In this document: positions 1 to 52,334 of the stretch, in pieces
Numbering within the stretch: position 1 is the first letter of the stretch
Layout: each line of letters begins with the position of its first letter
Source of the DNA: Candidatus Goldiibacteriota bacterium HGW-Goldbacteria-1
GTDB lineage: Bacteria; Oederibacteriota; PGYV01
Assembly: GCA_002839855.1 (NCBI GenBank)
Contig: PGYV01000002.1
Coordinates: 203,125-267,124 of the forward strand
Reading direction: 5' to 3'
Length of the DNA stretch: 64,000 nucleotides
Notes under the pieces: model-generated
The model's input: the letters and a program-made list of their open reading frames with translations, nothing else
Told to the model about the DNA's origin: nothing
Databases searched by the model: none
Made by a program: the position numbers and the translations under genes

Positions 1-2
1 AC

Positions 3-746: not shown

Positions 747-917
747 TACCGGTTTATACACGCTGAAATTATCATAAGGGGTTATTAAAATCATTTATTT
801 ATTAAAGGATACTTGCGGCTTATTAATGAGTATAATAGTTTTATTTGGTATTATTTTGTACTTGTTTTTCATAGCCGTTTTTAATATAATTATTAAAACG
901 ATTTACGGAGGATAACT

Positions 918-1172: not shown

Positions 1173-1431
1173 AATTGAACTTTCGCGCAGCGCGTATAAA
1201 TGGCTGAAAATGGCTCCCGGGGGGATGCCGGAACTTGCGGCCATTAAGGGTAAAATAATGGAGCTTGCGGAAAATCCAAAACCGCCCGGCTGTGAGAAGT
1301 TAAGGATGAAAGAAGATTATTATAGAATAAGGCACGGGAATTACAGGGTTGTGTATGAAATCTCGGTCACAGAAAAGAAGGTAATAATTGTTGCAATAGG
1401 GCATAGAAGGGAAATATACAGGGGGATATAA
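1165..1431 (+). CDS. Type II toxin, RelE/ParE family
   Basis: 88 aa from the internal ATG. 'YRIRHGNYRVVYEI...KKVIIVAIGHRREIY' is the typical RelE/ParE core. Translationally coupled to the upstream antitoxin. Confidence 0.75.
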   Translation: MYKIELSRSAYKWLKMAPGGMPELAAIKGKIMELAENPKPPGCEKLRMKEDYYRIRHGNYRVVYEISVTEKKVIIVAIGHRREIYRGI

Positions 1432-1591
1432 TCAGCGGGTTGAATCATCGTTTTTTTTCTGTGGCCGCATATGGAAACATATTTTTATACATAGGCTTTT
1501 ATTGTTAATCAATTGAAATCCCATGGGGGATATAATATAATGCACTCTGCTCCCGGATTATGAGGGTAAAAATGTGGTATTGGGGTAAAAG

Positions 1592-3651: not shown

Positions 3652-3660
3652 ATAAATCTT

Positions 3661-3868
3661 AAACTATAAGCATAGAAGCAGATAAGCATAAGCGCAGGAT
3701 ATAAAGAAATTCTTTTGCTATAGCTTAACTGCTTAATATTTTAAAGTGTTATACTTTCGTTATTGCTTAAAGTTTAAACCGTCCCTCCGTACATCTGTCC
3801 CTCTGTCCCTCGGTTTTACCAAGCCTCCAAGCCTCCAAGCATCTAAGCCTCCAAGCCTCCAAGCCTCT
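3661..3868. repeat. Composite intergenic repeat, copy 1. An 'ataagc'-rich module (3661-3697) plus 'GTCCCTC...CCAAGCCTCCAAGC' octamer tandem repeats (3776-3868)
   Basis: Related copies occur at 10516-10929 and 21563-21760. 'CCAAGCCT' is tandemly repeated about 5 times. ORF 3746..3949 is a translation artefact of this repeat. Confidence 0.7.
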
Positions 3869-3888
3869 TGTTTTGCCGGGTTTCATAA

Positions 3889-5735
<1,847 letters not shown>

Positions 5736-5736
5736 T

Positions 5737-6051
5737 ATGAAAAGGGATAATGACTATAAAAAAGAATTTCAGACAAAAATAGAAAGTGAAATTGATAAAA
5801 AAGAGCAGGCAAAAAAAACCGGTTCAGAGGCCCTGTACTGGATAGGCATGATGGGTATTGTGGGATGGTCAGTCACAATTCCTCTGCTGGCGGGGATATT
5901 TCTGGGCAGATGGATAGATGAAAAATTCCCGGGGCAGTATTCGTTTACCTTAATGTTAATGTTTGCAGGGTTGGCGCTTGGCTGCTGGAACGCGTGGTAT
6001 TGGGTGCAAAAAGCAAGCCGGAATAAAAAGGAAAAAGATAAAAGTAAATAA
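5737..6051 (+). CDS. atpQ: AtpQ-like small membrane protein (ATPase_gene1/AtpZ family)
   Basis: 104 aa with two predicted TM helices ('ALYWIGMMGIVGWSVTIPLLAGIFLGRW', 'FTLMLMFAGLALGCWNAWYWV'). Lies between atpC and the a-subunit gene. Confidence 0.5.
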   Translation: MKRDNDYKKEFQTKIESEIDKKEQAKKTGSEALYWIGMMGIVGWSVTIPLLAGIFLGRWIDEKFPGQYSFTLMLMFAGLALGCWNAWYWVQKASRNKKEKDKSK

Positions 6052-6063
6052 ACGGAGGCGCGT

Positions 6064-6372
6064 ATGAACAATATAATGCTTGTTGTGTCTGCGGCGGCGG
6101 GTGCGGTTACGGCGTGGATATATCTGATGCTGCTAAAAAGGACTGTTTTACAGATTACGTCCGGCAAATCATCAGCTGTTTTGATATTCGGATATTTTCT
6201 TCGGATAGCCATCTGTATTATTTGTTTTGCCGCGGTTTCGTGGGGTAATCACCTTGACAGGGTGCTTGCGTGTTTGGTGGGTTTCAGTGTTGTGCAGATT
6301 AGTTCAATAATCAGGGCGGGCAGACAGTCAGATTTCTTAAAAAGCGCGGGGAATTATGGAAATAAATCCTGA
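6064..6372 (+). CDS. atpR: AtpR-like small membrane protein (N-ATPase accessory)
   Basis: 102 aa with about 3 TM helices and an Arg inside the first TM ('LLKRTVLQI'). Sits immediately upstream of subunit a. Confidence 0.5.
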   Translation: MNNIMLVVSAAAGAVTAWIYLMLLKRTVLQITSGKSSAVLIFGYFLRIAICIICFAAVSWGNHLDRVLACLVGFSVVQISSIIRAGRQSDFLKSAGNYGNKS

Positions 6373-7027
6373 CAATATGCAGATGTTCAGTATAGGAATT
6401 ATAAAAATCAATGCCACTATTTTTTATACGTGGATTGTTATGGCTCTGCTGACACTATTTTCTATTATTATTACATCGCGCCTTTCAACCGGGGCAAAGA
6501 TACCGCGGTGGCAGGGCGTGCTGGAAGTAATTGTATCTTTTGTAAACAATCAAATAAGGCAGGTGATAGGGCGCAACCCGCGGCCTTATACCGCTTTTCT
6601 TGGTACGCTGGGAATATTTATACTTGTGTGTAATGTGTTGGAAGTGGTGCCGCTGTACCATCCGCCCACGTCGTCGCTGTCCACCACAGCCGCGCTGGCT
6701 GTAAGCGTGTTTTTTGCTGTGCCGTTCTATGGGATATTAAAGAATGGGCTGTGGGCGCATATCAAGTCATATTTTCAGCCGTCATTTTTTATGCTGCCTT
6801 TCCATATTATAAGCGAGATTTCAAGGACAGTGTCCCTTGCGGTAAGGCTTTTTGGAAATATCATGAGCGAAAGTTTAATGATAGGCGTGTTTCTTTCGGT
6901 TGTGCCGCTATTTGTGCCGCTTGTTATGCAGGCCTTTGGGCTGGTAATAGGCGTGGTTCAGGCATATATTTTCTTTACTCTGGCAACTGTTTACATAGGG
7001 TCTTCCGTGTCAATACACGGGGAATAA
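6356..7027 (+). CDS. atpB: ATP synthase F0 subunit a
   Basis: Polytopic membrane protein with the 'LAVRLFGNIMSE' motif carrying the conserved Arg. Confidence 0.9.
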   Translation: MEINPDNMQMFSIGIIKINATIFYTWIVMALLTLFSIIITSRLSTGAKIPRWQGVLEVIVSFVNNQIRQVIGRNPRPYTAFLGTLGIFILVCNVLEVVPLYHPPTSSLSTTAALAVSVFFAVPFYGILKNGLWAHIKSYFQPSFFMLPFHIISEISRTVSLAVRLFGNIMSESLMIGVFLSVVPLFVPLVMQAFGLVIGVVQAYIFFTLATVYIGSSVSIHGE

Positions 7028-7048
7028 AAAAATGAAAGGAGGGTCATA

Positions 7049-7327
7049 ATGGACAATGCAACGATAGTGGCGGTAGTTTCAATCATTACGGCAGGGGCGA
7101 CAATTACATTAGGGACAATGGTTCCCGCGTACGGCGAGATGAAAGCGCTGATAAAGGCGCTTGAATCAATTACGCAGCAGCCGGATGCTTCAAATGTGTT
7201 AAGCAGAAACCTTTTTGTGGGGCTTGCCATGATTGAATCGCTGGCAATTTACTGCCTTGTAATTTCAATAATTCTTATATTTACAAATCCGTTCTGGAAT
7301 TTCATGACAACAGCCGGAGGAAAGTAG
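7049..7327 (+). CDS. atpE: ATP synthase F0 subunit c
   Basis: 92-aa hairpin proteolipid. Helix 2 reads 'GLAMIESLAIYCLV'. Helix 1 carries Glu in 'VPAYGEMKA'. Confidence 0.9.
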   Translation: MDNATIVAVVSIITAGATITLGTMVPAYGEMKALIKALESITQQPDASNVLSRNLFVGLAMIESLAIYCLVISIILIFTNPFWNFMTTAGGK

Positions 7328-7328
7328 G

Positions 7329-8111
7329 ATGCACTTTGACCTGTTTACATTCATTGCGCAGCTTATTAATTTCGCGTTGCTTGTATTTCTGCTTAATAAG
7401 TTTCTTTTTGGCAGGATTAAAGCCGCAATGGACGAAAGGGAAAAAAAGATAGCCGGCGACCTTGAAAAGGCGGGTATTCTAAGGGAAGAAGCGCAAAAAT
7501 CCGCGGCGCTTGCGGCAGAAGAATTAAAATTGCTGGAAAGCCGCAGGCAGGAAATGCTGGATAATGCCCGCAAAAAAGCGCGTGAAGAAGCTGAAGAAAT
7601 GAAAGCCGCAGCGCAGGGCGCGCAGCGGGAGCAGCAGAAAAAATGGCAGCAGGCATTTTCGGGAGAGCAGGAAAACTACTTAAGGATGCTTAAAGCGCAT
7701 TCCGGTAAATTCGCGTGGAAGGTTTCTGAAAAGATGTTAAGGGAGCTGTCTGATGAAAAGATAAATGATAAAGCCGCGGAGATATTTTTAAAAAAACTGG
7801 AAGCGCTTGGCGGCGCGCAAACGGCGGAATTTAAAGCGGCGGTTAACAGGTCGGAAAAACCTGTGGTGGTTTCAAGTCCGTTTATTATAGATGCCGGTAT
7901 TAAGGATAAAATTTCCGGTGTAATTGCAGCCAAGACAGGCAGCCAAAAAACAGTTATATATGAGCTTAACGAAGCTCTGGTCTGCGGTATTGAAGCCGGG
8001 GCTGAAGGGTATAAAATATCATGGGGCGGGGAGGAATATTTTTCCGGTATAGAAAAAGAAGTGATGGATGTTTTTAAAGATGGAAGCAAAAAAGGCGGAT
8101 ACGATGGATGA
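7329..8111 (+). CDS. atpF: ATP synthase F0 subunit b (unusually long; possible b/delta-like fusion)
   Basis: N-terminal TM 'FTFIAQLINFALLVFLLNKFLF' followed by a coiled coil. At 260 aa it is much longer than a typical b subunit. The C-terminal part loosely resembles the delta (OSCP) C-domain. No separate delta gene is present. Confidence 0.75.
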   Translation: MHFDLFTFIAQLINFALLVFLLNKFLFGRIKAAMDEREKKIAGDLEKAGILREEAQKSAALAAEELKLLESRRQEMLDNARKKAREEAEEMKAAAQGAQREQQKKWQQAFSGEQENYLRMLKAHSGKFAWKVSEKMLRELSDEKINDKAAEIFLKKLEALGGAQTAEFKAAVNRSEKPVVVSSPFIIDAGIKDKISGVIAAKTGSQKTVIYELNEALVCGIEAGAEGYKISWGGEEYFSGIEKEVMDVFKDGSKKGGYDG

Positions 8112-9660
8112 AAGTAAAAATATAAAAAGCACGCTTAATAATATGCTTGATTCCGTTTTTACAGAAGCGGAAAAGATAGCGGGTGAGAATTCCGCGTCAC
8201 TTTTACTGGGAGAGACCGGAACAGTAATTTCCGTGGGCAGGGGTATCGCATCCGTAAAAGGGCTGTTTAATGTGAAATCAGATGAACTTATAAGTTTTCC
8301 GGGAGGGTATTACGGAACTGCTTTTAATCTGGAACCGGATTATGTGTTAGTGGTGCTTCTGTCAAAAAGCGATGATATTTCCGCGGGTATGCAGGTAAAA
8401 AGAACAGGCAAAACAGTAAGCGTGCCTGTGGGCGAAGCGCTGCTTGGCAGGGTGGTTGACCCGCTTGGCAGGCCGCTGGATAACGGTGCTGAAATAGCGG
8501 CCGAAAAATGGTACCCGTCGGAAAGGCCGTCGCCGGTTATTATGGACCGCGCGCCGGTAAATATGCCGCTGCAGACAGGTATTACAGCGGTGGATGCGCT
8601 GATACCAATAGGCAGGGGGCAAAGGGAGCTTATTATAGGCGACAGGCAGACAGGCAAGACTGCAGTTGCCGTGGACACAATAATAAATCAGCGCGGCAAG
8701 AATGTGATATGCGTGTACTGCTCTATCGGGCAGCAGAATTCAGCCGCGGCAAAGGTAATTGCATCACTTAGAGACGCCGGGGCAATGGATTACACTTTTA
8801 TAGTTGTATCCGGAGGGGATGACCAGCCGGGAATGAATTTTCTGGCGCCGTATTCGGCGTGCTCTATGGCGGAATTTTTCATGGAGCAGGGAAAAGATGT
8901 ACTGATAGTATTTGACGACTTAAGCAAACACGCCCGTTCTTACAGGGAAATTTCCCTGTTGCAAAGGCGCCCGCCCGCAAGGGAGGCCTTCCCGGGCGAT
9001 ATTTTTTACATTCATTCGCGGCTGCTTGAAAGGGCAACTCACCTGTCCGCGGAAAAAGGGGGCGGCTCGCTTACCGCGCTTCCTGTGGTGGAAACAGAGG
9101 CGCAGAATATTGCGGCGTATATCCCCACAAATCTTGTCTCCATAACAGATGGGCAGATATACCTGTCGCCTAAACTATTTCAGCAGTCGGTCCTGCCTGC
9201 CGTGGATGTGGGCAAGTCTGTATCACGCGTTGGCGGTGCGGCGCAGCTTCCGGCTTTCAGAAAAACAGCAGGCGACCTTAAACTTTCATATTCCCAGTTT
9301 GAAGAGCTTGAAATTTTTGAAAGGTTTTCAACCAAACTGGATGACCGGACAAAACAGTCGCTGCTGCGCGGCCACAGAATACGCGCCGTTTTAAAACAGC
9401 AGCAGAATAACCCCGTATCTGTTATGGGGCAGATAGCGCTTTTAACCGCAGTTAATAACGGGGTGTTTGATGAAATTGCCGAAAACGCCGTGCCGGCAGC
9501 CGCGGATATTGTAAGGCAAAAGGCAGAGGCGGAATTAAAAACAATCTCGGAGAAGATACTGGCAGGCAATGAAATCACTCCGGAAGATAATATTATAATT
9601 CTGAATACTGTAAAAAAACTAATTTCAGAAAGCACAGGTAAAAACAATGCAGTCTCCTGA
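8104..9660 (+). CDS. atpA: ATP synthase alpha subunit
   Basis: P-loop 'GDRQTGKTAVAVDTIINQ'. The start codon was chosen at 'MDESKNIK', which has an RBS-like 'AAGGCGGA' upstream. The ORF-track start is 8068. Confidence 0.9.
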   Translation: MDESKNIKSTLNNMLDSVFTEAEKIAGENSASLLLGETGTVISVGRGIASVKGLFNVKSDELISFPGGYYGTAFNLEPDYVLVVLLSKSDDISAGMQVKRTGKTVSVPVGEALLGRVVDPLGRPLDNGAEIAAEKWYPSERPSPVIMDRAPVNMPLQTGITAVDALIPIGRGQRELIIGDRQTGKTAVAVDTIINQRGKNVICVYCSIGQQNSAAAKVIASLRDAGAMDYTFIVVSGGDDQPGMNFLAPYSACSMAEFFMEQGKDVLIVFDDLSKHARSYREISLLQRRPPAREAFPGDIFYIHSRLLERATHLSAEKGGGSLTALPVVETEAQNIAAYIPTNLVSITDGQIYLSPKLFQQSVLPAVDVGKSVSRVGGAAQLPAFRKTAGDLKLSYSQFEELEIFERFSTKLDDRTKQSLLRGHRIRAVLKQQQNNPVSVMGQIALLTAVNNGVFDEIAENAVPAAADIVRQKAEAELKTISEKILAGNEITPEDNIIILNTVKKLISESTGKNNAVS

Positions 9661-10513
9661 GGAGGTAAAAAGAAAACTATCCGGGGCTGAATCTTTAAAG
9701 TCAATAGTGCGCACAATGAAGGTGCTTGCCGCGGTAAATGTCAGGCAGTATGAGAAGATGTCTGATGCTATTGACAGGTATAACGAAATTGTGGAAATGG
9801 GTTTCAGGGTGTTTTTGGGTAATGAAGAAAAAAATTATAATCCGGCGCCGGAAGAAGAAAACACCGGATATATTGTACTGGGTTCGGATATGGGCATGTG
9901 CGGAAGGTTTAATGACCAGATAGCAGCGTATGCTTTGGAAAAAACAGGTAATAATACAGATACAGTGATGGCGGTCGGCGACAAAGTTTCCGCCAAGCTG
10001 GAAGACGCAGGGGTTAAGCCGGCGGAAACTATTATTTATCCGGCAGTCCTGTCCGCGGGCATTGTGCCGCTTCTGCGGGAGATAATTCTTAAAATTGACG
10101 GGTGGCGGGAGACCAGAGGCATAAATTCCATAAGTGTATGCTATAACAAACCGGCAGATTCACTGTCGTACAATCCTGTTATGAAAAAGATTCTTCCCAT
10201 GGAGCCGGAATATCTGGAGCAGTTAAGAAAAAAAGAATGGAAATCCCGCAGCCTTCCTATATATAAAGAAGATAGGGAGAAGTTATTCTCCGGCCTTGTT
10301 AAGAATTATATTTATGTAGCGCTATACAGGGCGTTTGTGGAATCGCTTGTAAGCGAAAACACGGCAAGGCTTATTTCCATGCAGGCGGCGGAAAAACATA
10401 CCGCAGAACGCATAGAGGAGCTGACACTGGAATACAACATGGAACGCCAGGACGCCATCACCTCTGAAATCCTTGACATCATCGCCGGCGCAGAAGCGGT
10501 GGAAGGGAAGTAA
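9647..10513 (+). CDS. atpG: ATP synthase gamma subunit
   Basis: 288 aa. Last gene of the operon. Its C-terminal 'ITSEILDIIAGAEAV' is gamma-like. Confidence 0.8.
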   Translation: MQSPEEVKRKLSGAESLKSIVRTMKVLAAVNVRQYEKMSDAIDRYNEIVEMGFRVFLGNEEKNYNPAPEEENTGYIVLGSDMGMCGRFNDQIAAYALEKTGNNTDTVMAVGDKVSAKLEDAGVKPAETIIYPAVLSAGIVPLLREIILKIDGWRETRGINSISVCYNKPADSLSYNPVMKKILPMEPEYLEQLRKKEWKSRSLPIYKEDREKLFSGLVKNYIYVALYRAFVESLVSENTARLISMQAAEKHTAERIEELTLEYNMERQDAITSEILDIIAGAEAVEGK

Positions 10514-10515
10514 AA

Positions 10516-10929
10516 AAAGCGATTTAAGCTATAAGCAGTTAAGCATAAGCGATAGCTATGATTTTGTAGTGGTTTATTTTTTTTCTTTGAATTTGTAGGG
10601 ATAGCGCTCCCGCGCTGTCCGCGTATTTGATTTGTCCTGGTAGACGCGGGTCTTCAGCCCGCGGCAGTTGGTTTGTATTTAATGTTTGTATTTATATTTA
10701 TATTTATATTTGTATTTGTATTTGTATTGGTATTGGTATTGGTATTGGTAGACGCGGGTCTTCAGCCCGCGGTAGTTGATTTGTATTTAATGTTTGTATT
10801 TGCCATGGTAGGCGAACCCTTTAGGGTGCGGCAGTTGTTCTTGAACGGTCTGCCTTGTCGCCGTTCTTCCGTCCCTCGGTTCTACTGACCTTCCAAGCCT
10901 CTAACCATCCAAGCCTCCAAGCATCTCTC
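10516..10929. repeat. Composite intergenic repeat, copy 2. Contains the 'aagctataagcagttaagcataagc' module, two REP-like hairpins, a microsatellite and the 'CCAAGCCT' module
   Basis: GTAGACGCGGGTCTTCAGCCCGCGG occurs at 10639 and 10747. A second hairpin CGAACCCTTTAGGGTGCG occurs at about 10815. The CCAAGCCT tail spans 10861-10929. Confidence 0.75.
10661..10741. repeat. Compound hexanucleotide microsatellite (TATTTA)n(TTTGTA)n(TTGGTA)n
   Basis: Directly visible as tttatatttatatttatatttgtatttgtatttgtattggtattggtattggtattgg. Confidence 0.9.
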
Positions 10930-10944
10930 AAGATAAAAATTCCC

Positions 10945-10973
10945 TTGCCAAACCTCCGCCACAGCCATATAAT
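10945..10973 (+). promoter_or_regulatory. sigma70-like promoter TTGCCA-N17-TATAAT with a conserved roughly 110-nt leader. Duplicated at 16937
   Basis: -35 TTGCCA, a 17-bp spacer and -10 TATAAT. The next roughly 110 nt are near-identical to 16966-17075. Confidence 0.55.
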
Positions 10974-11163
10974 ACCAATTGTGGCAGGGGTAATATAAAA
11001 GGAAGCGGAGGGAAGATGGAATTGGGAGCAAAAAATCGTTTTTCGTTTCTGCCTGTTATCAACAACAACTTCCCTAAAACTATGTTAAGTTTTGCCTATT
11101 TCGCGAATTTATATTCAAATTCCAAACGCAAGGGTATGGATAATAACGAGTTTTTTGTTCTGA

Positions 11164-11190
11164 TTTCAAGGTCTGGTATGAGATTATTAT
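11164..11190 (+). promoter_or_regulatory. Conserved upstream element TTTCAAGGTCYGGYAYGRG-TTATTAT (copy 1 of 4)
   Basis: Lies 25-50 nt upstream of the 11215 start codon. Paralogous copies occur at 13996, 15609 and 17141. Confidence 0.5.
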
Positions 11191-11214
11191 TTTGAATTAG
11201 GGAGGTTTTTGCGA

Positions 11215-12471
11215 ATGGCTAAAAATATTTCTTTTATAAGTATGCTGCGAGTAGTTGTTCGATTACATTCTAAAGGTATTGTCTGCGCGTTTTTATTAAT
11301 TTCAGTATCAACTATGGTATGCATTTCCTGTTCCAGACACTTAAGCCCGCCTGCTATTTCAACATCTCCGGTAACGCAGGTTCCAACTGCGGCTATTTCG
11401 GGTACTGTCTCTGCTGCGGCTTCTCATACTTTTACAAATACAGATACACCTGTTGTTTTTTACACAAATACAGAAACAAGTACGTTTACAATGACAGATA
11501 CATTTACACCAACTCGAACGGCAACAAATACCAAAACTCCTATTCCAACACTGTCTTCGGCGCAGATAATAGCCACGCAGACTGTAGTTGCGGAAATGGT
11601 GGCAGTCCCCGGGGGTACGTTTACGCAGGCGGATTCATATGGAAATTACAGTTTCGTTCACACAATTTCACCATTTAAGATTGCAAAATATGAACTTACT
11701 TATGATCTTTGGTATAAAGTGTATGATTGGTCCAGACAATCGGGTAATTATGTATATGCAAGTAATTACAGTGTCAGTGAAGGTTTTATAGGAACAACTA
11801 AACAACCGACCAACGCGAGATTTCAACCGGCTTATGGCATGTCCTGGTATGATGCAATCATTTGGTGTAATGCTTATAGTGAACTGGCAGGATTGACACC
11901 TGTTTACTATAAAGATCCTGCATTTCTTATTCCGCATAATGTTTCAAAGATAATATATCCACCAGATATTGATCCAACTCCCGGGAGTATTGATTATCCG
12001 TATGTGAAATGGGATGCAAATGGATATAGGTTACCTACATATGGAGAATGGCAATACGCGGCAAGGTATATTGACGGAACCAGTTGGCTTCCAACCAATT
12101 ACGCAAGTGGAGCGGCGGATTTTGAATATAACAGTTATGCAACAATGGCTGTTGCGTGGTGCGTGGAAAATTCAGATTATTATACGCATATTGTAGGTTT
12201 GTTGATCCCAAATGCACTGGGGATTTATGATATGTCCGGAAATGTTTCAGAGTGGTGTTGGGATTGGGGTAATACTTATTTCCCGAATACGCCGAAAGTA
12301 AATTACAGGGGACCGGATGTCTGTAGCCTGATAAATCCGGGACGAATAATAGCGGGTTCTTATTTTACTATCAGTTCTTTTGATTCCGGTGTTCATTATC
12401 TCAGTTGGAGTGATTTATTCTATGGGAACATGGGTGGTGCAGTAACAATAAGACTTGTCAGATCAAACTGA
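11215..12471 (+). CDS. Secreted lipoprotein with a Thr-rich linker and a C-terminal FGE-sulfatase (SUMF1-like) domain
   Basis: Lipobox-like 'MVCISC'. Low-complexity 'TNTDTPVVFYTNTETSTFTMTDTFTPTRTATNTKTP'. FGE-family motifs 'GYRLPTYGEWQYAARY' and 'YDMSGNVSEWCWDW'. Confidence 0.75.
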   Translation: MAKNISFISMLRVVVRLHSKGIVCAFLLISVSTMVCISCSRHLSPPAISTSPVTQVPTAAISGTVSAAASHTFTNTDTPVVFYTNTETSTFTMTDTFTPTRTATNTKTPIPTLSSAQIIATQTVVAEMVAVPGGTFTQADSYGNYSFVHTISPFKIAKYELTYDLWYKVYDWSRQSGNYVYASNYSVSEGFIGTTKQPTNARFQPAYGMSWYDAIIWCNAYSELAGLTPVYYKDPAFLIPHNVSKIIYPPDIDPTPGSIDYPYVKWDANGYRLPTYGEWQYAARYIDGTSWLPTNYASGAADFEYNSYATMAVAWCVENSDYYTHIVGLLIPNALGIYDMSGNVSEWCWDWGNTYFPNTPKVNYRGPDVCSLINPGRIIAGSYFTISSFDSGVHYLSWSDLFYGNMGGAVTIRLVRSN

Positions 12472-12520: not shown

Positions 12521-13846
12521 TTGATGAGAGTGGCTGCAATCATACCGGTTTTGATAGTATTAATAGAGGGATGTACTGCTCACAGAGCGCCGTCACCTGT
12601 CACTGCGGTGGTGATTCCTGCTGAAAGTGTTACAGTTACCGCGACATATACTTTGACAGCAGTAAGCACGCATACGCCTGCGGCTTCTATCAGCCCGACA
12701 CATACCCCCGCTGCCACTGCCACTGCCACTGCTACTCCGGGATGTTTTGTTGTCACGTTTGCCGATCCTAATTTAGAACAACTTATTAGAGCGAAGATTG
12801 CTAAGTATAGTGGAGACATATATAACTGTGATCTGGCAGGGATTTATGAAATTGATGTGGTTTTTGAAATTTATGATTTATCGGGTTTGGAATATTGTAC
12901 AAATGTAAAATATTTAGATCTTGACTTTTTTAAGGGGAATACTTTAGCGCAGTTGGCTACTATGAAGCAATTAGTAAATATACACATTCACGGCAAAGGT
13001 CAGGTGATAGATATAACGTCATTAAGTGAATGCACGATTTTATCAACGTTAAAACTAATAAACGTTGACATATCCGGCACTGTAAGTTCAATTAGTAATT
13101 TGTTTAATCTGGTGGTTTTAGATCTTGATTCTGAGTCTTTACCAAATCTTTCGGCTTTATCAGCGCTTACAAAACTTGTATATCTAAGTGTTTCTGCCTC
13201 GAATTTAAGTGATATTTCGGCCATTTCGGGATTAACGAATGTAGAGTATTTGGATATTGTTGCCGGCGGAATTACTTCTTTATCCGTTTTAAGCGGATTA
13301 GATTTACGTGAATTTTCATTTACTCATCTCCCAAGATACATAAGAAGGTCAATAGTATCAGATCTTTCGCCTTTTGCAGGCATGACAAATCTGGAGATTT
13401 TTAGAGTGTCGGGTGCTGAAATTACCGATATTTCTCCTTTGTCTAATTGTACGTCTTTGATTAATCTTACTATTAATGATACGCTTATTACCAACCTTAA
13501 CGCGTTATCTGCTTTGTCAAATCTTCAAGATGTTACTCTTTGGGAAAATATAAATCTTGATGATATAAGCGGCCTTGCAAATTCTAAAAGTATTTCCGAC
13601 CTTTCTATTATTGGTTCGAAAGTATCAGATATAAGTGCTATATCTACTATGTCTTGTTTATTTTCGATTGACCTGCCTAATAATATGATAACGGACATAC
13701 ATCCCATTGTGTTAAATGCGCAGGATAGTTCGTGTGGACAGAGTCCTTATAGTATTTTCTTGACAGGCAATCCGCTAAGTGCCGCGGCATTAGCAGACAT
13801 AGAATTGCTTGAAAATACTTACGGGGTAAGTGTCATGTATGAATAA
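12521..13846 (+). CDS. Leucine-rich-repeat (internalin-like) lipoprotein with a Thr/Ala-rich linker
   Basis: Signal/lipobox 'LIVLIEGC'. Repeated 'L..L..L..LDLS...I.DIS.LS.L.NL' units, for example 'ITDISPLSNCTSLINLTINDTLITNLNALSALSNLQDVTL'. Confidence 0.75.
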   Translation: MMRVAAIIPVLIVLIEGCTAHRAPSPVTAVVIPAESVTVTATYTLTAVSTHTPAASISPTHTPAATATATATPGCFVVTFADPNLEQLIRAKIAKYSGDIYNCDLAGIYEIDVVFEIYDLSGLEYCTNVKYLDLDFFKGNTLAQLATMKQLVNIHIHGKGQVIDITSLSECTILSTLKLINVDISGTVSSISNLFNLVVLDLDSESLPNLSALSALTKLVYLSVSASNLSDISAISGLTNVEYLDIVAGGITSLSVLSGLDLREFSFTHLPRYIRRSIVSDLSPFAGMTNLEIFRVSGAEITDISPLSNCTSLINLTINDTLITNLNALSALSNLQDVTLWENINLDDISGLANSKSISDLSIIGSKVSDISAISTMSCLFSIDLPNNMITDIHPIVLNAQDSSCGQSPYSIFLTGNPLSAAALADIELLENTYGVSVMYE

Positions 13847-15608: not shown

Positions 15609-15649
15609 GGTTTTACTTTCTGGTTTCAAGATCCGGTACGGGTTATTAT
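15609..15649 (+). promoter_or_regulatory. Conserved upstream element (copy 3 of 4) GGTTTTACTTTCTGGTTTCAAGATCCGGTACGGGTTATTAT
   Basis: Near-identical to 17141-17181. Confidence 0.5.
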
Positions 15650-16889: not shown

Positions 16890-16936
16890 ATTTAACAGGA
16901 TTGACCCCGAGCTGCTGCTTTTAATAAAAAATACCA

Positions 16937-16965
16937 TTGCCAAATACCTGTTATCGCCATATAAT
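16937..16965 (+). promoter_or_regulatory. sigma70-like promoter TTGCCA-N17-TATAAT plus conserved leader (copy 2)
   Basis: Paralog of 10945-10973. The leader 16966-17075 is about 95 percent identical to 10974-11084 apart from a 1-nt indel. Confidence 0.55.
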
Positions 16966-17140
16966 ACCAATTGTGGAAGGGGTAATATAAAAGGAATCGG
17001 AGGGAAGATGGAATTGGGAGCAAAAATCGTTTTTCGTTTCTGCCTGTTATCAACAACAACTTCACAATAACTTTGTTTATTTTTGCCTATTTTGCGAATC
17101 TAAATTCGATTTCCAAAAGCAAAGTTATGAATAATTACTT

Positions 17141-17181
17141 GGTTTTACTTTCTACTTTCAAGGTCCGGCACGGGTTATTAT
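17141..17181 (+). promoter_or_regulatory. Conserved upstream element (copy 4 of 4) GGTTTTACTTTCTACTTTCAAGGTCCGGCACGGGTTATTAT
   Basis: Lies 68 nt upstream of the GHKL ATPase gene start. Confidence 0.5.
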
Positions 17182-17248
17182 TCATAAATTATGTAAGTTG
17201 TAATAGTAAATAGTTTATATAAAATGGTTTTGTATGGAGGCGGAGTAT

Positions 17249-19660
17249 ATGAGTAACGAAGATTTATTCTGGGAGTTTTATCGTGCGTCTGGAGAAAATG
17301 AAATTCATAATATTCTTGAAAAACACGATTTAATGAATAACAATTCTTTTTGGTTTCCATATGGGGGTAAGACGATTGATGATAGAAATAATTTTGGTAC
17401 GTTTGAAAGTCAGCAAGCAAATCCGATACCCGCTTTAATAGAAAAAATTACAAATTCTATTGACTCGCTATTGATGTTAAAATGCATAGAAAATGGTGTT
17501 GATCCGAAAAGTAAACTAGCTCCTAAGACAATGGAAGAGGCGATAGAAAAATATTTTAACATAAAAGATGGCGATTTTAGTGAGATAGGTAGAAATGTTA
17601 GGCGAAATATAGCTGAAGAAATACAAGTGATAGCTACTGGTGACAAACAAAGTCCTGACATTACTGTATATGATTGCGGCGAAGGTCAGTTACCAGAGAA
17701 GTTTAAAGATACATTTGTTTCGTTGTTGAAAGGAAATAAGAATGATGTACCATTTGTTCAAGGTAAATATAATATGGGTTCAACTGGAGCGGTAATTTTC
17801 TGTGGTAATAAGAAATATCAATTGATTGGGTCGAAATTAAATAAAACTATTGGTAGTTCTGAAAGTCCATTTGGATTTACATTAGTGCGTAGGCATCCAT
17901 TAACGGAAGAAGAAGAAAGCAAATATAAAAGTAGTTGGTATGAATATTTGGTTATTGAAAATGAAATACCAAGCTTTAATTGTGGCGAACTTGATTTAGG
18001 TCTGTATAATAGAAAATTCGAGTGTGGTTCAATTATTAAAATGTTTTCATATGGATTGCCAAGAGGGGCTCGTTCATCTGTGGTATGGGATTTGTGGAGA
18101 GAATTGAATCAGTTTCTATATCATCCAGCACTGCCGTTTCTTGTTTATGAAAAAAGAGGATATGATAATAAAACTCCGTCAAAACTAGTTCTTGGTAATA
18201 AGATCCGGTTAATTCTTGATGAAAGAGACAAAAAAGAAAAAACGATAACTACAAAAATCATTGATGAAAGATTTGGTGAAATTCCAATAGAAGTTCATGT
18301 GTTTAAAAATGATGTGAATCAAACTGAGTTTATCAACGGCAAAGCATTGATTTTTACTGTAAATGGACAGGTTCAGGGTTATGAAAAAAGAAACTTTATT
18401 TCAAGTGAGTTAAATTTCCCTATGTTGAAAGATCATATGCTTGTTAGGGTTGATTGTACAAATATAAGGACTTCTATACGAACGGATTTATTTAAGTCTT
18501 CTAGAGATAGATTGAATGAAAGTGTTTTAACGGAAGAATTTCTTGATAAAATTATAAATGTTTTAAAAGGCAATGAAGAATTAAGGAAAATTAACCAGGA
18601 AAGAAAGAATTCTATTTTACGACAAAATGCAGATGATAAGAAGTTATTTGAAGATATTATAACAAGAATGCCTCTGCAAAATGATTTTATTAAAATGTTT
18701 ACACAGTCAAATGATTTTAATTTTGATCTTAAAAATATAAATAAGAAACATGATAGGACTGATTCGTCTGATGGAAGTGAGAAAACTAAAAAGCCGATTG
18801 AGTCGAAAAGATTTCCTTCGATTTTCAAAGTTCAATTAAAAGATAATAACAATAAAGATAAAATTAAGACAATACCCATAAACGGAAAAGGTGTTATCAA
18901 TTTTGAAACCGATGTTGAAGATGAGTATTTGTTTAGGCCTAAAGATAAAGGCGAACTAAGAATTGGAATATTAAATTATAAAAGCAATAATGCCGACGGT
19001 GGAACGGAAGCAAAGCCAACCAAGATTGAAGAACTATTGGATGTCACTCTTAGCGGACCAACGGATAATGCAATTAAAGCGACTTTTGAACCTAAGGCGA
19101 AATTAAATGTTGGTGATGAAATTCAAATAAGCACTACGCTAACATCTCCTTCGGGGGATTTGGAATGTATTTTCTACATTAAAATTATAGATCCTCAGAA
19201 TTTGCAAGATAATAATTCAAAGAATAAAGACAAAGAAAGTCTTAACCTACCTTTGCCAATAAAAGTATTTGAAAACAAAGACAAAGACGATGATAGGACG
19301 TGGAGTGATTATGGTTGGGATGGCAATGATATTGTAAAGATAATAACTGATAATGAAAATAAAGAAAAAAAATTGATTGAGGGTATAGCGATAAATATGG
19401 ACAGTTTTGTAATCAAAAGATATATTTCTAAAAATAAAGTTATTACTTCAAGTGATCTGGTATTAACAAAGAATAGATACTTCCTTTCTGTTTATTGGCA
19501 TAGTATTTTTCTGTTTAAATTTCTTGAGAATATTTTTAAAGCCGAAGAATATCAAGAATTACCAGAAGATGTTGAGGAGATAGTAGCGCAATTGATGCAG
19601 TTTTATTCAGAATTTTTATTATCTTTTGGTATGTTAGGAGAGAGTTTAAATCAGGATTAA
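17249..19660 (+). CDS. Large (about 800 aa) GHKL/Bergerat-fold ATPase-domain protein with a K/N/D-rich C-terminal region. Candidate defence protein A
   Basis: N-box 'ALIEKITNSIDSL' (E-x3-N-x2-D). G1 box 'ITVYDCGEGQ' (D-x-G-x-G). G2-like 'QGKYNMGSTGAV'. Start chosen after 'GGAGGCGGAGTAT'; the alternative start is 17234. No signal peptide. The gene is AT-rich. Confidence 0.55.
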   Translation: MSNEDLFWEFYRASGENEIHNILEKHDLMNNNSFWFPYGGKTIDDRNNFGTFESQQANPIPALIEKITNSIDSLLMLKCIENGVDPKSKLAPKTMEEAIEKYFNIKDGDFSEIGRNVRRNIAEEIQVIATGDKQSPDITVYDCGEGQLPEKFKDTFVSLLKGNKNDVPFVQGKYNMGSTGAVIFCGNKKYQLIGSKLNKTIGSSESPFGFTLVRRHPLTEEEESKYKSSWYEYLVIENEIPSFNCGELDLGLYNRKFECGSIIKMFSYGLPRGARSSVVWDLWRELNQFLYHPALPFLVYEKRGYDNKTPSKLVLGNKIRLILDERDKKEKTITTKIIDERFGEIPIEVHVFKNDVNQTEFINGKALIFTVNGQVQGYEKRNFISSELNFPMLKDHMLVRVDCTNIRTSIRTDLFKSSRDRLNESVLTEEFLDKIINVLKGNEELRKINQERKNSILRQNADDKKLFEDIITRMPLQNDFIKMFTQSNDFNFDLKNINKKHDRTDSSDGSEKTKKPIESKRFPSIFKVQLKDNNNKDKIKTIPINGKGVINFETDVEDEYLFRPKDKGELRIGILNYKSNNADGGTEAKPTKIEELLDVTLSGPTDNAIKATFEPKAKLNVGDEIQISTTLTSPSGDLECIFYIKIIDPQNLQDNNSKNKDKESLNLPLPIKVFENKDKDDDRTWSDYGWDGNDIVKIITDNENKEKKLIEGIAINMDSFVIKRYISKNKVITSSDLVLTKNRYFLSVYWHSIFLFKFLENIFKAEEYQELPEDVEEIVAQLMQFYSEFLLSFGMLGESLNQD

Positions 19661-19696: not shown

Positions 19697-19726
19697 TTGA
19701 CAGTAGAAATGCACAAAGCTTATAAT
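19697..19726 (+). promoter_or_regulatory. Consensus sigma70 promoter TTGACA-N18-TATAAT upstream of the DGQHR/GIY-YIG gene
   Basis: 'ttgacagtagaaatgcacaaagcttataat' sits in the 237-bp A-B intergenic gap. Confidence 0.55.
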
Positions 19727-19897
19727 TACATTAATGTTTTAGGGAGTAATTATATAGCAATATGACATTCGAAATAACATTAAGAAAGAGTTCTAAAACT
19801 TATTTTTCAAAACGAATAGATCCAAAAGAAAAAATTCTTATTTATCAGATAGAATGTGATTTTATTCGAAAGTATAAAATTTGGAGGTTTATTAAAT

Positions 19898-21415
19898 ATG
19901 GAAAAATTTCATTATCCCGCAATAAGATTAAAACAATTTAATACCGAATTATACCTAACAAGTCTTTCTGCTGAAAGTGTAGCATATTTAGTTAATCAAA
20001 AATCATTAATCGTCGACAAATATCAAAGAGGCGAAGAAGATTCTTATCAAAGGAACGAAGATCATAGTAAGATTAGAGAACTTGCTGACTTTTTAAGATT
20101 ATATAAGAATGATGATATTGTAAAGCCGATTTTGCCAGCATCAATCATCATTAATGTCCCCGACAGTTCTAACCTAACTTTTGATGAAAAAAACGGCCAA
20201 ATTATTCTTGATAAAAAAGCAAAATTGAATATCGTAGATGGGCAGCATCGAGTCAAGGCTGTTTGTAAAGCTTATAGCGATGGAATCGCAGATGATTTCG
20301 AAGTACCAGTTACATTTATCAAAGGGTTAAAACGCATTCATGAAGCGGCTCAGTTTTTAATTATCAACGTTAAACAAAAACAAGTTAGAACCGATTTAAC
20401 CATGACCATATTGCATGAAATGAATGTACAAACGAACCAACTTGCAACGAAATTGAGAAAAATACTTAAAGTAGATGGATGGCAGATTGAAGCGACCGCC
20501 ATCGCTATTGATGTAAATACCAGGCAAAGAAGTCCATGGTTTAATTTAATAATGAGGCCCAATGAATCAAAACAATCATTGAAAGAACTAGGGGTAAAAT
20601 GGGTACCTATCAAACAGGCTTCATTTGTCGATTCACTCAGAAGATTTTGCGCTACAAATACTTCTAAAACGCTCGAGGAAAAGATCGCATTTTTAATTAA
20701 AACATGGAATTATCTTAAAAAAGAATACGCCCCTTCATTTGATTGCGAGACTGGGAATAATTATATGTTAACCAAAGGAACCGCGATAGGGCCAATACAT
20801 ATTTTTATGAGTTTGATGTATTCCATGGAAACCTGTGGTTTGTATGAAAATATCGAAGAAGTAATGACAACGTTTGTAAAAAAATATCCGTTAGAATTCT
20901 GGGAAAAGGGAAGCAAACACGCAGGATCATGGGGCACTTCGCAAAAAGAATATTATACACACGCAAAAGAAATTTCTGAAGTAATGTTTCCGGAATTGTA
21001 TTCTTTTTGGAACTCGGATTTATTAGAACATTATAGAAAAAAAGATTTAGTTGATGATGAAGTTCTTAATAGTATTGAGCATCTAATGGATCCTTTTTCG
21101 CTGAAACCATATACGGAAATAGAAGAATACATTAAAAACGATGTATCTGGTATATATTTATTAATAAATAAAAAACGAAATAAACTGAATATGTATGTTG
21201 GGCAAGCCGAAAGCATAAAGGACAGAGTTGCTGGTCATAATAGAGATTTCCTTGCTTTTAATTTCATCACTGTTAACGGCGAAGATCTAGACACGAGCGA
21301 AGCGCTCGTATATCATTTGATTAACAAAGAGTTTAGAACAAATACAATACATCCTCCTACTAAAAAATGTGAATTTTGCGAACACGATAAAAAACATAAG
21401 TCTAAGAAGAAATAA
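19898..21415 (+). CDS. DndB-like DGQHR-domain (ParB/Srx-fold) protein fused to a C-terminal GIY-YIG nuclease domain. Candidate defence protein B
   Basis: N-terminal 'YPAIRLKQFNTELYLTSLSAESVAYL' and 'KLNIVDGQHRVKAV' (DGQHR motif). C-terminal 'SGIYLLINKKRNKLNMYVGQAESIKDRVAGHNRD' (GIY...YVG...R...H, a GIY-YIG core). Terminal Cys/His cluster 'CEFCEHDKKH'. Start chosen at the ATG after a GGAGG RBS; the ORF-track start is 19856. Confidence 0.6.
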   Translation: MEKFHYPAIRLKQFNTELYLTSLSAESVAYLVNQKSLIVDKYQRGEEDSYQRNEDHSKIRELADFLRLYKNDDIVKPILPASIIINVPDSSNLTFDEKNGQIILDKKAKLNIVDGQHRVKAVCKAYSDGIADDFEVPVTFIKGLKRIHEAAQFLIINVKQKQVRTDLTMTILHEMNVQTNQLATKLRKILKVDGWQIEATAIAIDVNTRQRSPWFNLIMRPNESKQSLKELGVKWVPIKQASFVDSLRRFCATNTSKTLEEKIAFLIKTWNYLKKEYAPSFDCETGNNYMLTKGTAIGPIHIFMSLMYSMETCGLYENIEEVMTTFVKKYPLEFWEKGSKHAGSWGTSQKEYYTHAKEISEVMFPELYSFWNSDLLEHYRKKDLVDDEVLNSIEHLMDPFSLKPYTEIEEYIKNDVSGIYLLINKKRNKLNMYVGQAESIKDRVAGHNRDFLAFNFITVNGEDLDTSEALVYHLINKEFRTNTIHPPTKKCEFCEHDKKHKSKKK

Positions 21416-21562
21416 TTTTCAATCATTAAATTGATCGGATACTATTAACGAAATTACCAGTTAAAGTAATATCTGTGCCGGACATTAAAAAAGAAAGTAA
21501 ATTTATTGTTTGATTTTTCTTACGGAATGCAATCTGGGGCTTTGCGGGGAAGGGTTGGGTTA

Positions 21563-21760
21563 AAAAAGCGTTTTAAGCTATAAACAGTTAAGCAAAAGCA
21601 ATTTGACCTTTTGACCGGGTGGATAGTTAAAAATAATCTACTACCGCGGGCTGAAGACCCGCGTCTACCAGATCCAAACCAATCCTACAAGCAATCGAGA
21701 TGCCTTGCCCTTGCTTCCGTTCCTCTGTGCATCTGTCCCTCCGTCCCTCCGGTCTTACGG
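21563..21760. repeat. Composite intergenic repeat, copy 3. Contains an atpG-3'-end-like segment, the 'aagctataaacagttaagc' module, an inverted REP hairpin and the GTCCCTC module
   Basis: 21541-21602 resembles 10490-10557, including the last codons of atpG. CCGCGGGCTGAAGACCCGCG at 21641-21669 is the reverse complement of the 10639 hairpin. 21711-21760 resembles 3781-3830. Confidence 0.7.
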
Positions 21761-25976: not shown

Positions 25977-26113
25977 TTTCACACAAGCGCCCGTAATTCT
26001 GCGATTAAGGCTGTAAAACTTTTCTGAAATTTTTCCTTGAAATCATTTTCAATCCGAATATAATAATAAAAACGGGAATTAAAGGGGAGATGCCAGCAAT
26101 TATAGGAGGGTTT

Positions 26114-27691
26114 ATGAAAAAAAAGCAATTGCTTGTGTTATTATCTGTTATTTTTCTTTTTGTTTTTATATCCTGCAGTAAAAAAGCAAGCCCCACATCT
26201 CCTGTAGCCGAACCTACAACACCTCCCGTTTCAGCTACTGTAACTGAAACTGATTTGGGCACGTTAACAGCAACCCCGACTGTTACAATTACAGCGCCGG
26301 ACGCAACTGTTACCGTTACATCAACCCTTCCGGAAAACACACGGACGGCAACAGCCACATTAACGGCATCACCGACTTTAACCGCAACCGATATCATACT
26401 ATCCTCAACTGCAAGCGCGACTGCCACGGCAACATTAACAGCAACCGATATCATACCGTCCTCAACGCCAAGCGCGACTGCCACGGCAACACTCCCTGAA
26501 AATACCTATACTTCTACCGTGACACAGACCGCGACAGGTACTTTAACGGGGACAATGACAAATACGATGACGCTTACCGATACAATAGAAGAAACACCCA
26601 CTTTAACAGCCACAATTACAATCACGCCCACTGCCACGGTAACCGTCACTTTGACAGCCACTCCTTTGCCTGTATGGGCTGATTTTGGGACAAATCCCGT
26701 AAGTTCAGATATGGGCGGCATGCCTGTTTTAAGAAATTACAGTTCGCAGTTCTACCTTTTATATATTGACGGCGCGCAGGGCGGAAAATTAAGCGCAAAG
26801 TATCATAATGGATTTGCCTGGGGTTCAGCAGGCGACGGAATATCGTCGGATGTGGCGTCCTATCCAAGCATGGAATTAAGTTCCGGCGATATGTACTGCG
26901 CTTACGCGCAGCTTGGCAAAGTATATTTCAAAAGAAAGCTTGCTTTAACCTGGCAGGCGGAATATCAGATATCGGACGGCAATGCAAATTATCCGGATAT
27001 TTTTGTTTACAGCGGCACAAGCCAGTATATATCATACAGGGATGAATACGGGGCTGCTGCGGGAAAAGCTTCGCTTAAGACAGGGCAGGGAAGCGCGTGG
27101 TCGCTTGTCGGCCTTTCGGGATTCAACACGGTTGCGGTAAAAGATACGGACGTTGTTGTAGCATCTGGCGCTGTGCCTTATGTGGCGTGCCAGGAAGAAA
27201 CCGGAAATGTTCTGGGCAAAGTGGAGGTAATGACATACAACGGCGCGTCCTGGTCACAGGTTGGCACCACAATTACCGCGCGCACCGGATGTAATATAGA
27301 TATGGTTTACGGCGGCGGTTATTTATACCTTGCTTACGCCGCGCCGCAGAGCCCTTATCCCGTGCAGGTAATAAGATCAAGCGGGGGTGCATGGACGCCG
27401 GTGGGCGGAATTGTAAATAATGTAGAGGCAGCGGATATATCCCTTTCGTATGATGTATATCAGGGAACCATTAATGTGGCCTTTACGGATGTTTCATCTT
27501 CCAATTCAGGCAAGGCGTTTGCATGGAACGGCGTTTCATGGAACCAGATAGGCGGCATATTCAATGATAATATTAGCACCAGCAGCGCAATTTTCCCGTC
27601 GCTTAATGTTTATAACGGAGTTCCGTATGTGGCCTTTAAGGATACAGGAACCCTGCATAACGGGAAGATTGTGACAAGAGTATACCGATAG
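26114..27691 (+). CDS. Secreted lipoprotein with a Thr-rich tandem-repeat linker and a C-terminal roughly 330-aa domain of unknown function
   Basis: Signal 'LLVLLSVIFLFVFISC'. The roughly 60-nt tandem DNA repeat 'gcgactgccacggcaacattaacagcaaccgatatcata..tcctcaac' occurs twice. The antisense ORFs 26005..26484 and 26506..26721 are artefacts of the repeat. Confidence 0.6.
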   Translation: MKKKQLLVLLSVIFLFVFISCSKKASPTSPVAEPTTPPVSATVTETDLGTLTATPTVTITAPDATVTVTSTLPENTRTATATLTASPTLTATDIILSSTASATATATLTATDIIPSSTPSATATATLPENTYTSTVTQTATGTLTGTMTNTMTLTDTIEETPTLTATITITPTATVTVTLTATPLPVWADFGTNPVSSDMGGMPVLRNYSSQFYLLYIDGAQGGKLSAKYHNGFAWGSAGDGISSDVASYPSMELSSGDMYCAYAQLGKVYFKRKLALTWQAEYQISDGNANYPDIFVYSGTSQYISYRDEYGAAAGKASLKTGQGSAWSLVGLSGFNTVAVKDTDVVVASGAVPYVACQEETGNVLGKVEVMTYNGASWSQVGTTITARTGCNIDMVYGGGYLYLAYAAPQSPYPVQVIRSSGGAWTPVGGIVNNVEAADISLSYDVYQGTINVAFTDVSSSNSGKAFAWNGVSWNQIGGIFNDNISTSSAIFPSLNVYNGVPYVAFKDTGTLHNGKIVTRVYR

Positions 27692-52278: not shown

Positions 52279-52334
52279 TATGTCGTTGTTTGGATTTTGT
52301 GTCTTTGCTTATTTAATTCTTGTGTATAGTCTTG

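Follow-up and report, generated by a model that had tools for sequence, protein, structure and literature searches.

A large unnamed family of two-domain GHKL ATPases with a candidate role in defence, represented at a low-GC locus of Candidatus Goldiibacteriota

Introduction

ATPases that combine a GHKL domain with an S5-type second domain have been described in restriction-modification contexts as the MORC proteins and the paraMORC families 1-5 (Iyer, Abhiman & Aravind 2008, PMC2292703). The paraMORC1 proteins have their own distinct conserved C-terminal extension and are found in MORC or HNH operons (PMC2292703), and in GHKL-Shedu (VcSduA / paraMORC3) the ATPase is needed for defence (PMC12137116). 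Here we analyse a gene for a large GHKL-family ATPase and the gene that follows it (gene B) in a 64,000-nucleotide (nt) stretch of the genome of Candidatus Goldiibacteriota bacterium HGW-Goldbacteria-1 (contig PGYV01000002.1, positions 203,125 to 267,124; hereafter the window). A first-pass annotation, made from the sequence of the window, had described the GHKL protein as orphan-like, assignable only over its first ~250 residues and possibly a sensor or clamp partner for gene B, with a flavour of the conflict systems in which MORC-like ATPases occur, and it recommended a search for transducer or nuclease folds and a check of phyletic distribution and neighbours. The reading that we favour, and which we hold to be somewhat probable, is that the protein represents a large and horizontally mobile family, as yet without a name, whose members are GHKL ATPases with two domains, belong to the MutL/MORC/GyrB/Hsp90 class and act in defence.

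Results

The GHKL gene is an intact open reading frame (ORF) on the plus strand (17249-19660; 803 residues and a stop codon), with an ATG start codon just preceded by GGAGG and an alternative ATG at 17234. Its product matches a hypothetical protein of Candidatus Goldiibacteriota HGW-Goldbacteria-1 at 100% identity. Taken alone, the protein gave zero matches in Pfam, NCBIfam and PADLOC even at E≤1, and no family of the PADLOC v2 set, which includes SspC, SspE, SspFGH and Mza models, matched it at this threshold. A database search recovered no fewer than 1,581 homologous clusters (90% identity), the majority of them full length, which refutes the description as orphan-like. More than 100 homologues were covered over 98-100% of the protein, and the best 120 were almost all full length (~800 residues) and 45-58% identical, across phyla. 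The gene is annotated as 'hypothetical' in all seven plasmid records that contain it, and so is nearly every source entry.

An alignment of 35 family members was used to locate conserved residues (coordinates are on the plus strand). The protein begins with a family-specific N-terminal segment (residues 1-54, 17249-17410) that precedes motif I, is modelled as helices at a predicted local distance difference test score (pLDDT) of 77-92, and has W35, Y38, G39, N48, F49 and F52 invariant. The Bergerat-fold ATP-binding domain follows (residues ~55-290, 17411-18118), with motif I at 17441-17464 (E65-x3-N69-x2-D72), motif II at 17672-17686 (D142-x-G-E-G146), motif III, the Gly-rich lid, at 17762-17788 (G172-KYNMG-STG180) and motif IV at 17873-17881 (G209-F-T211); all four motifs are invariant across the 35 sequences. 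The Pfam model HATPase_c_3 (PF13589) was matched by 30 of the 35 members (best E 5e-6), and the histidine-kinase-type HATPase_c model was matched by none of them, among the families listed. In ATPases of the GHKL + S5 transducer class a conserved basic residue of the second domain reaches the gamma-phosphate; in the second domain of this family R303, R320 and R419 are invariant and K312 and K365 nearly so.

The structure was modelled with AlphaFold2 (mean pLDDT 77.5, residues 1-470 mostly at 85-95) and compared with the PDB by Foldseek. The model resembled the N and M domains of Hsp90, HtpG, GRP94 and the 43-kDa fragments of GyrB and ParE (E 4e-9 to 1e-7, probability 1.0), in alignments of 400-480 columns that covered the entire 360-396-residue GyrB/ParE 43-kDa fragments and Hsp90 N+M. 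Since these alignments span complete two-domain fragments, the homologous module comprises the ATPase domain and a transducer-like second domain, ~460 residues in all, and not the first ~250 residues to which the first-pass annotation had limited the assignment. The second domain, together with three helices, extends over residues ~291-470 (18119-18658; Foldseek span, pLDDT 85-95). The recommended fold comparison thus returned the S5-type transducer-like domain, and a nuclease fold was not found. Searched against PDB sequences, the family profile gave noise only and retrieved no GHKL chain, and the sequence link to known GHKL proteins, as judged from such profiles, is very remote. The GHKL signal in the single sequence is weak, its alignment to GHKL profiles falling short of significance, which for this one sequence, read literally, is the outcome that the first-pass annotation had named as refuting its call. 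It becomes significant at the family level and by fold; with the invariant motifs I-IV, the HATPase_c_3 matches and the resemblance to Hsp90, GyrB and ParE, the GHKL identity stands. Residues 1-460 are predicted, from the motifs and the model, to form a catalytically intact Bergerat ATPase with a transducer-like domain, and we place high confidence in these statements on fold and family.

Among the described systems the paraMORC radiation comes closest. The family has in common with paraMORC and prokaryotic MORC proteins an N-terminal GHKL domain whose ATP-binding motifs are intact, the S5-type second domain, a wide but sporadic spread over bacteria and archaea, and the adjacency of methyltransferases, nucleases and other restriction-type genes (as raw counts). 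The differences concern motifs, effectors and partners. The MORC S5 motif GhXhhpXXRhl (PMC2292703) is absent, by inspection, from the family consensus over residues 291-460, where the sole Gly with an Arg at +8 (G373/R381) is unconserved and lacks the hydrophobic positions. Neither the ExxxH of the C-terminal S5 of paraMORC2 nor the HxH of the paraMORC5 C-terminal domain was seen on inspection of the consensus. The C-terminal RE-fold (DUF4263) nuclease of paraMORC3 / Shedu type I-D is absent here (Pfam; the C-terminal Foldseek matches are Ig-like only), the C-terminal or adjacent TIR domain of paraMORC4 had no Pfam match and no counterpart among the listed neighbour families, and no superfamily II helicase recurs as a partner at the GHKL loci. 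VcSduA, itself a defence protein, resembles the family in that one large polypeptide carries a GHKL ATPase at its N-terminus and a clamp-like domain in the middle, but it ends in a DUF4263 PD-(D/E)xK nuclease, a domain that the GHKL family does not have. The two-domain ATPase module and the four nucleotide-binding motifs are common to the family and to MutL, the GyrB/ParE 43-kDa fragments and Hsp90/HtpG, whereas sequence similarity to these proteins lies below detection in the PDB-sequence profile searches and the C-terminal half has no MutL endonuclease/dimerisation domain, Toprim or Hsp90 C-terminal domain. Like paraMORC1, the family has a family-specific C-terminal extension. Our verdict, from sequence and modelled structure and with paraMORC1 compared by its description only, is that the protein is probably a paraMORC-like defence-island GHKL ATPase.

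The phyletic distribution proved patchy and wide, with 72 genomic loci in species-representative genomes, bacterial as well as archaeal, from more than 15 phyla. The hosts include Planctomycetota, Omnitrophota, Ignavibacteria, Bacteroidota, Bacillota, Campylobacterota, Bdellovibrionota, Gammaproteobacteria, Nitrospinota, Cyanobacteria, Spirochaetota, Verrucomicrobiota, Acidobacteriota, Actinomycetota, the candidate phyla radiation (CPR; Paceibacterota and Saccharibacteria) and Hodarchaeota (Asgard archaea). Seven large plasmids, three of them haloarchaeal, carry the gene, and recombinases or integrases are present at some loci, including integrases beside plasmid copies. The family had no match in the INPHARED phage collection and is essentially absent from IMG/VR, where the single match lies on a 597-kb contig and is not interpretable. 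The GC content at third codon positions (GC3) is 0.236 for the GHKL gene and 0.281 for gene B, compared with 0.44-0.50 for the flanking ATP-synthase and H+-pyrophosphatase genes, and the two genes have the lowest GC and GC3 of the region. The low GC3, the patchy phyletic spread and the plasmid copies together point to horizontal acquisition of the GHKL gene.

Gene neighbourhoods were compared by calling ORFs in 64 non-redundant loci and clustering the neighbours, which are given here as raw counts. No partner gene is universal to the family among these loci, and in several genomes the GHKL gene is solitary between housekeeping genes. Defence-type genes nevertheless recur, and the neighbourhood is often, not always, defence-like. 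The 149 nearest neighbours contained, by Pfam, YhcG (5), PIN (5), GIY-YIG (3), Zeta toxin (2), ResIII (2), MvaI/BcnI and transposase genes as well as ordinary metabolic genes; in a PADLOC scan of the same set the best 25 rows were all redundant models of the candidate system PDC-S02. KAP NTPase genes, in company with SspD, are also among the defence-type neighbours. An Eco57I-type methyltransferase gene precedes the GHKL gene in Bdellovibrionales, and a methyltransferase gene adjoins a haloarchaeal copy. The conflict-system flavour proposed at first is supported: low GC3, patchy spread and defence-type neighbours at many loci speak for it, and the housekeeping surroundings of many other loci speak against it.

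A recurrent companion is an ORF of ~76 residues (c1) that lies directly upstream of the GHKL gene and is translationally coupled to it, often with a 4-nt overlap, in 18-21 loci (~30%), from CPR to Bacteroidota (for example L001 7773-7985, L003 7767-7997 and L068 1124-1354). Its consensus is ERFKRxAxxRTxxxLxxLxxLGNCSNxxxYEYTxEDV, with C-S-N invariant within 'GNCSN', and it has no relative in Pfam, PADLOC or PDB. No c1 remnant was detected by tblastn in the 344-nt gap upstream of the GHKL gene in the window. In five Bacteroidota loci a YhcG/DUF1016 PDDEXK nuclease gene (PADLOC candidate PDC-S02) lies 2 nt downstream of the GHKL gene, and all five also carry c1. CapK, a small HTH-STAS-GHKL kinase, has a STAS-wHTH partner, CapS (PMC13373217); a CapS/CapK-type interpretation of the small upstream ORF and the GHKL gene was rejected, as there is no STAS or helix-turn-helix (HTH) match and the fold is GyrB/Hsp90-like with a transducer. 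A different protein of ~350-380 residues is encoded directly upstream of divergent GHKL members at four loci in four phyla (L014 4925-5968, L067 4817-5941, L072 4837-5973 and L073 4834-5934). It has no Pfam or PADLOC match and on inspection looks like a protein with a ribbon-helix-helix-like N-terminus and a winged-helix-like C-terminus.

Gene B (19856-21415, plus strand; the deposited protein starts at 19898) encodes a DndB/DpdB-like DGQHR domain of the ParB fold followed by a putative C-terminal GIY-YIG nuclease domain. The N-terminal assignment has a Pfam DndB match above cut-off (4.9e-16) and PADLOC matches to DpdB (2e-14) and DndB (4e-8); the Pfam GIY-YIG match (19.2 bits) is below the 22.6-bit cut-off, and two homologues carry a precomputed PF01541 match. 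The family is rare (~16 full-length homologues). Its invariant residues comprise D128-G-Q-H-R132, Q65-R66 and F167...N171 (FxxxN), the GIY-YIG set G432-x-Y434, Y447-x-G449, R457, E482 and N496, and a terminal H-x5-C-x2-C, and the predicted GIY-YIG catalytic set is intact in gene B. The homology of DGQHR and DUF262 ParB-fold domains and the definition of the DGQHR motif were reported previously (PMC4619093). Gene B has in common with SspE and GmrSD an N-terminal ParB/Srx-fold domain followed by a nuclease. It differs in that the putative nuclease is GIY-YIG rather than DUF1524/HNH, that the N-terminal domain is nearest to DndB/DpdB and not to DUF262, and that no modification genes are nearby. 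By its domain composition, the fusion appears to follow a GmrSD/SspE-like plan in a form not described before, in which the nuclease is GIY-YIG.

We considered whether the two genes form a dedicated restriction system, in which the DGQHR domain would sense DNA or its modification, the GIY-YIG domain would cut and the GHKL protein would clamp or regulate. The adjacency of the genes on the same strand, their shared base composition (the lowest GC3 of the region, 0.24 and 0.28) and the intact catalytic set of gene B are in its favour. At the other loci, ~70 in number, no gene B homologue was found, and the closest GHKL relatives (54-57% identity) have neighbours unlike those in the window. Conversely, the gene B homologues have no neighbouring GHKL family member in any of the three contexts that could be read (L083-L085), where they stand with DpnI, ResIII and methyltransferase genes, with EcoRI-methylase, GmrSD_N, DUF4917 and Mrr-nSTAND genes, or alone. 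The 195-nt gap between the genes contains a sigma-70-like promoter (19697-19726, plus strand; TTGACA-18-TATAAT, 12/12 match). The proposed partnership of the GHKL protein with gene B is therefore unsupported as a conserved pair, and a dedicated system is in our judgement unlikely; the best reading is that each of the two genes is a mobile resident of defence islands in its own right and that they are neighbours by chance. Non-orthologous ParB-fold genes (DGQHR, DGQQR, DGLQR; DUF262-type) occur within 2.5 kb of the GHKL gene at 7 of the 64 loci and on a Hymenobacter plasmid, and the DndB-family gene of L051 overlaps the start codon of the GHKL gene, which leaves room for a looser functional affinity. 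The L051 protein and gene B share the DGQHR motif region alone, and ParB-fold genes are common in defence islands generally.

The C-terminal half of the GHKL protein begins with a Lys-rich linker (residues 471-519, 18659-18805), modelled at a pLDDT below 50 for residues 474-519 and accordingly predicted to be basic and disordered or flexible. It is followed by an Ig-like beta-sandwich (residues 520-650, 18806-19198) with a conserved TDVEDEY-x2-R motif, of which T554, Y560 and R563 are invariant. Foldseek yielded generic Ig-domain matches only (E ~1e-4), and UniRef names one homologue 'carboxypeptidase regulatory-like domain'. The C-terminus consists of a three-stranded alpha/beta unit and a helical tail (residues 666-803, 19244-19657, pLDDT 81-95), modelled at ~669-716 and as long helices at 720-800, respectively; W685, G692, N716 and M717 are invariant and D694, D718, K743 and H751 at least 90% conserved. 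This unit and tail had no match in a PDB search with the C-terminal profile, nor among the top Foldseek matches. An exhaustive profile search returned 358 clusters at 50% identity, in which the C-terminal module always lies at the C-terminal end of ~750-880-residue proteins, or in shorter entries that could be fragments of genes, and it is therefore exclusive to the GHKL family. The slight enrichment of the C-terminal part in K/N/D/E that had been noted is real (0.375 against 0.321), but the earlier view of the region as coiled-coil-like and without known motif gives way to a confidently modelled Ig-like beta-sandwich, alpha/beta unit and helical tail.

The near-invariant polar residues of this confidently modelled tail (D694, N716, D718, K743 and H751) mean that a cryptic active site may exist. 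The protein could then be self-contained, its alpha/beta unit being a diverged nuclease or other effector under the control of the ATPase, as in paraMORC3 and GHKL-Shedu; GHKL-nuclease fusions provide a precedent (PMC2292703, PMC12137116), and the many solitary loci would suit such a protein. We consider this distinctly unlikely. No nuclease, TIR or other effector fold was found in the C-terminal half with Pfam, PDB sequence profiles or Foldseek, the modelled unit has three strands only, and its motifs are, by inspection, unlike the PD-(D/E)xK, HNH and MutL endonuclease signatures.

At eight loci from four distant lineages the GHKL gene lies beside genes for an SspC-like large ATPase and an SspD PAPS reductase (PADLOC 2e-93). 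These are L051, L053, L054, L056 and L057 in Campylobacterota, L058 in Saprospiraceae, and plasmids of Hymenobacter (L080) and Ensifer (L081). According to published equivalences SspB corresponds to DUF4007, SspC to a BrxC-like ATPase and SspD to PAPS reductase (PMC12839542). In six of the eight (L051, L053, L054, L056, L057 and L058, positions 1-8450) the GHKL gene closes an operon of closely packed, overlapping genes, of which the middle ones vary: a DndB-family DGQHR gene in L051, GmrSD_N and a protein kinase in L054, and DzbA/DzbB-like genes in L053, L056 and L057. The Hymenobacter plasmid has DUF4007, SspC-like, PAPS reductase, DUF262 and SIR2 genes, convergent with the GHKL gene. In the literature we found no GHKL protein described as part of the Ssp, Dnd or BREX-4 systems, and the compact SspC-SspD-(variable)-GHKL operons may represent an undescribed restriction module for Ssp-type phosphorothioation. 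As separate observations, the DzbA/DzbB-like (Dazbog-like) genes lie within an Ssp-type operon, and a second, different GHKL protein is encoded on Ensifer adhaerens plasmid pC (L081 4372-6702, minus strand): a 776-residue 'sensor histidine kinase' with HATPase_c_3 (residues 118-217) and HATPase_c (residues 667-772), divergent beside the GHKL gene and the SspC/SspD pair.

These operons bear on two wider proposals. One, which we regard as doubtful, is that a ParB-fold (DGQHR/DUF262) NTPase and a GHKL clamp subunit would constitute an undescribed class of modification-sensing restriction module, which would end the Ssp-type phosphorothioation operons of Campylobacterota, Saprospiraceae, Hymenobacter and Ensifer and be reduced in the window to a minimal pair of GHKL and DGQHR-GIY-YIG genes. 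The other makes the family the ATPase subunit of Ssp-type phosphorothioate modification-dependent restriction, with the copy in the window a stray. Although the recurrence of the SspC-like and SspD genes in four lineages and the terminal place of the GHKL gene in most of these operons speak for it, we think it quite improbable: no SspC or SspD homologue lies within the 64-kb window, ~88% of the loci are without SspC/SspD, the Ssp-linked members are more divergent (34-38% identity), and the PADLOC models for SspC, SspE and SspFGH miss the GHKL protein.

Directly upstream of the GHKL gene lies a duplicated promoter and untranslated leader (16927-17181, plus strand), of which a second copy, 84-88% identical, is found at 10935-11191, before a secreted FGE-sulfatase-like gene; its 3' 41-nt module recurs at 15609-15649, before a tetratricopeptide repeat (TPR) gene at 15687. 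The upstream element that the first-pass annotation had noted as shared with the neighbouring secreted-protein genes is thus real. The element begins with a sigma-70-like promoter (16937-16965, plus strand; TTGCCA-17-TATAAT, 11/12 match), the hexamers of which are identical in both copies while the 17-nt spacer differs. It had no match in Rfam at E≤1, and its RNA fold z-score (-1.36) is not significant. A leader peptide, in the form of a 20-codon mini-ORF after GGAGG, was rejected as unlikely because a 1-nt indel between the copies shifts its frame. The element is best described, from its sequence, as a locally duplicated promoter and 5' leader that now appears to drive a horizontally acquired GHKL gene, and it stands where the c1 ORF stands in many other genomes.

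The surroundings of the two genes contain further repeats. A 44-nt direct repeat (10510-10553 and 21559-21602, 89% identical) and GC-rich hairpin repeats in inverted orientation (10625-10673, 10739-10781 and 21635-21683; 84-91% complementary) flank an 11-kb lower-GC segment between the ATP-synthase gamma and H+-pyrophosphatase genes, and related pieces occur at 3779-3859 and 52310-52357. These look like dispersed REP-like (repetitive extragenic palindromic) intergenic repeats rather than att sites. Between two of the hairpin repeats, at 10673-10750, is a tandem array with a 12-nt period (TTTGTATTTATA-like, 5-6 copies). Secreted predicted proteins with long Thr/Ala/Pro-rich low-complexity linkers after the signal peptide are encoded at 11209-12471, 12521-13846 and 26090-27691; they include an FGE-sulfatase-like protein, a leucine-rich repeat (LRR) protein and a 533-residue protein.

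Discussion

Our analysis favours a mobile family of two-domain GHKL ATPases with a role in defence, a role to which we attach moderate confidence. Several points weigh against it. No described homologue or experiment ties the family to defence, and PADLOC v2 contains no model that matches the protein. Many loci have housekeeping neighbours only, and the link to defence genes consists of raw counts without a background. Hsp90 chaperones, rather than MutL or MORC, head the list of fold matches, and hhalign gave no significant alignment of the family profile with either MutL or GyrB of E. coli (probability <1%), although the correct motifs were paired, motif II with the MutL sequence DNGCG and motif I with EVVDNAIDEA of GyrB. 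Finally, an effector domain is not visible, and a clamp by itself offers no evident means of stopping an invader. A housekeeping chaperone-like or DNA-repair protein of the Hsp90 or MutL type, with no conflict role, would agree with the Hsp90 matches and with the several loci between housekeeping genes, yet it is very improbable given a patchy distribution across both domains with 45-58% identity between phyla, the foreign base composition, plasmid copies next to integrases, the lack of a conserved chromosomal position and the absence of Hsp90 or MutL C-terminal domains.

MutL, MORC, GyrB and Hsp90 are dimers with ATP-driven N-terminal closure. By analogy with them, the GHKL protein may be a constitutive dimer, held together through its C-terminal helices, in which ATP binding would close the N-terminal gate, so that the dimer would clamp DNA or a partner protein under the control of ATP; our confidence in this mechanism is low to moderate. 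The protein might defend against mobile DNA alone, often with the c1 protein (absent in the window), or might recruit whichever nuclease is encoded nearby. The effector step would then come from neighbouring nucleases or from an unrecognised activity of the conserved tail. In the window, the GHKL gene belongs to a low-GC islet of two genes, and its transcription is predicted to start from a host promoter and leader that have been duplicated.

With 1,500 clusters or more, spread over more than 15 phyla, this is a large and so far unnamed family, the window protein having no Pfam, NCBIfam or PADLOC match, and it is a concrete candidate for a single-gene or small-operon anti-phage system. It would extend the MutL/MORC-like ATPases of prokaryotic conflict systems by a branch that carries an Ig domain and lacks a nuclease. 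That the GHKL gene ends SspC-SspD operons suggests that phosphorothioate modification has a restriction partner which has gone unrecognised. Since prokaryotic ATPases of this kind are regarded as the ancestors of the eukaryotic MORCs, a clamp family without an effector could also shed light on the action of these proteins on DNA that they leave uncut.

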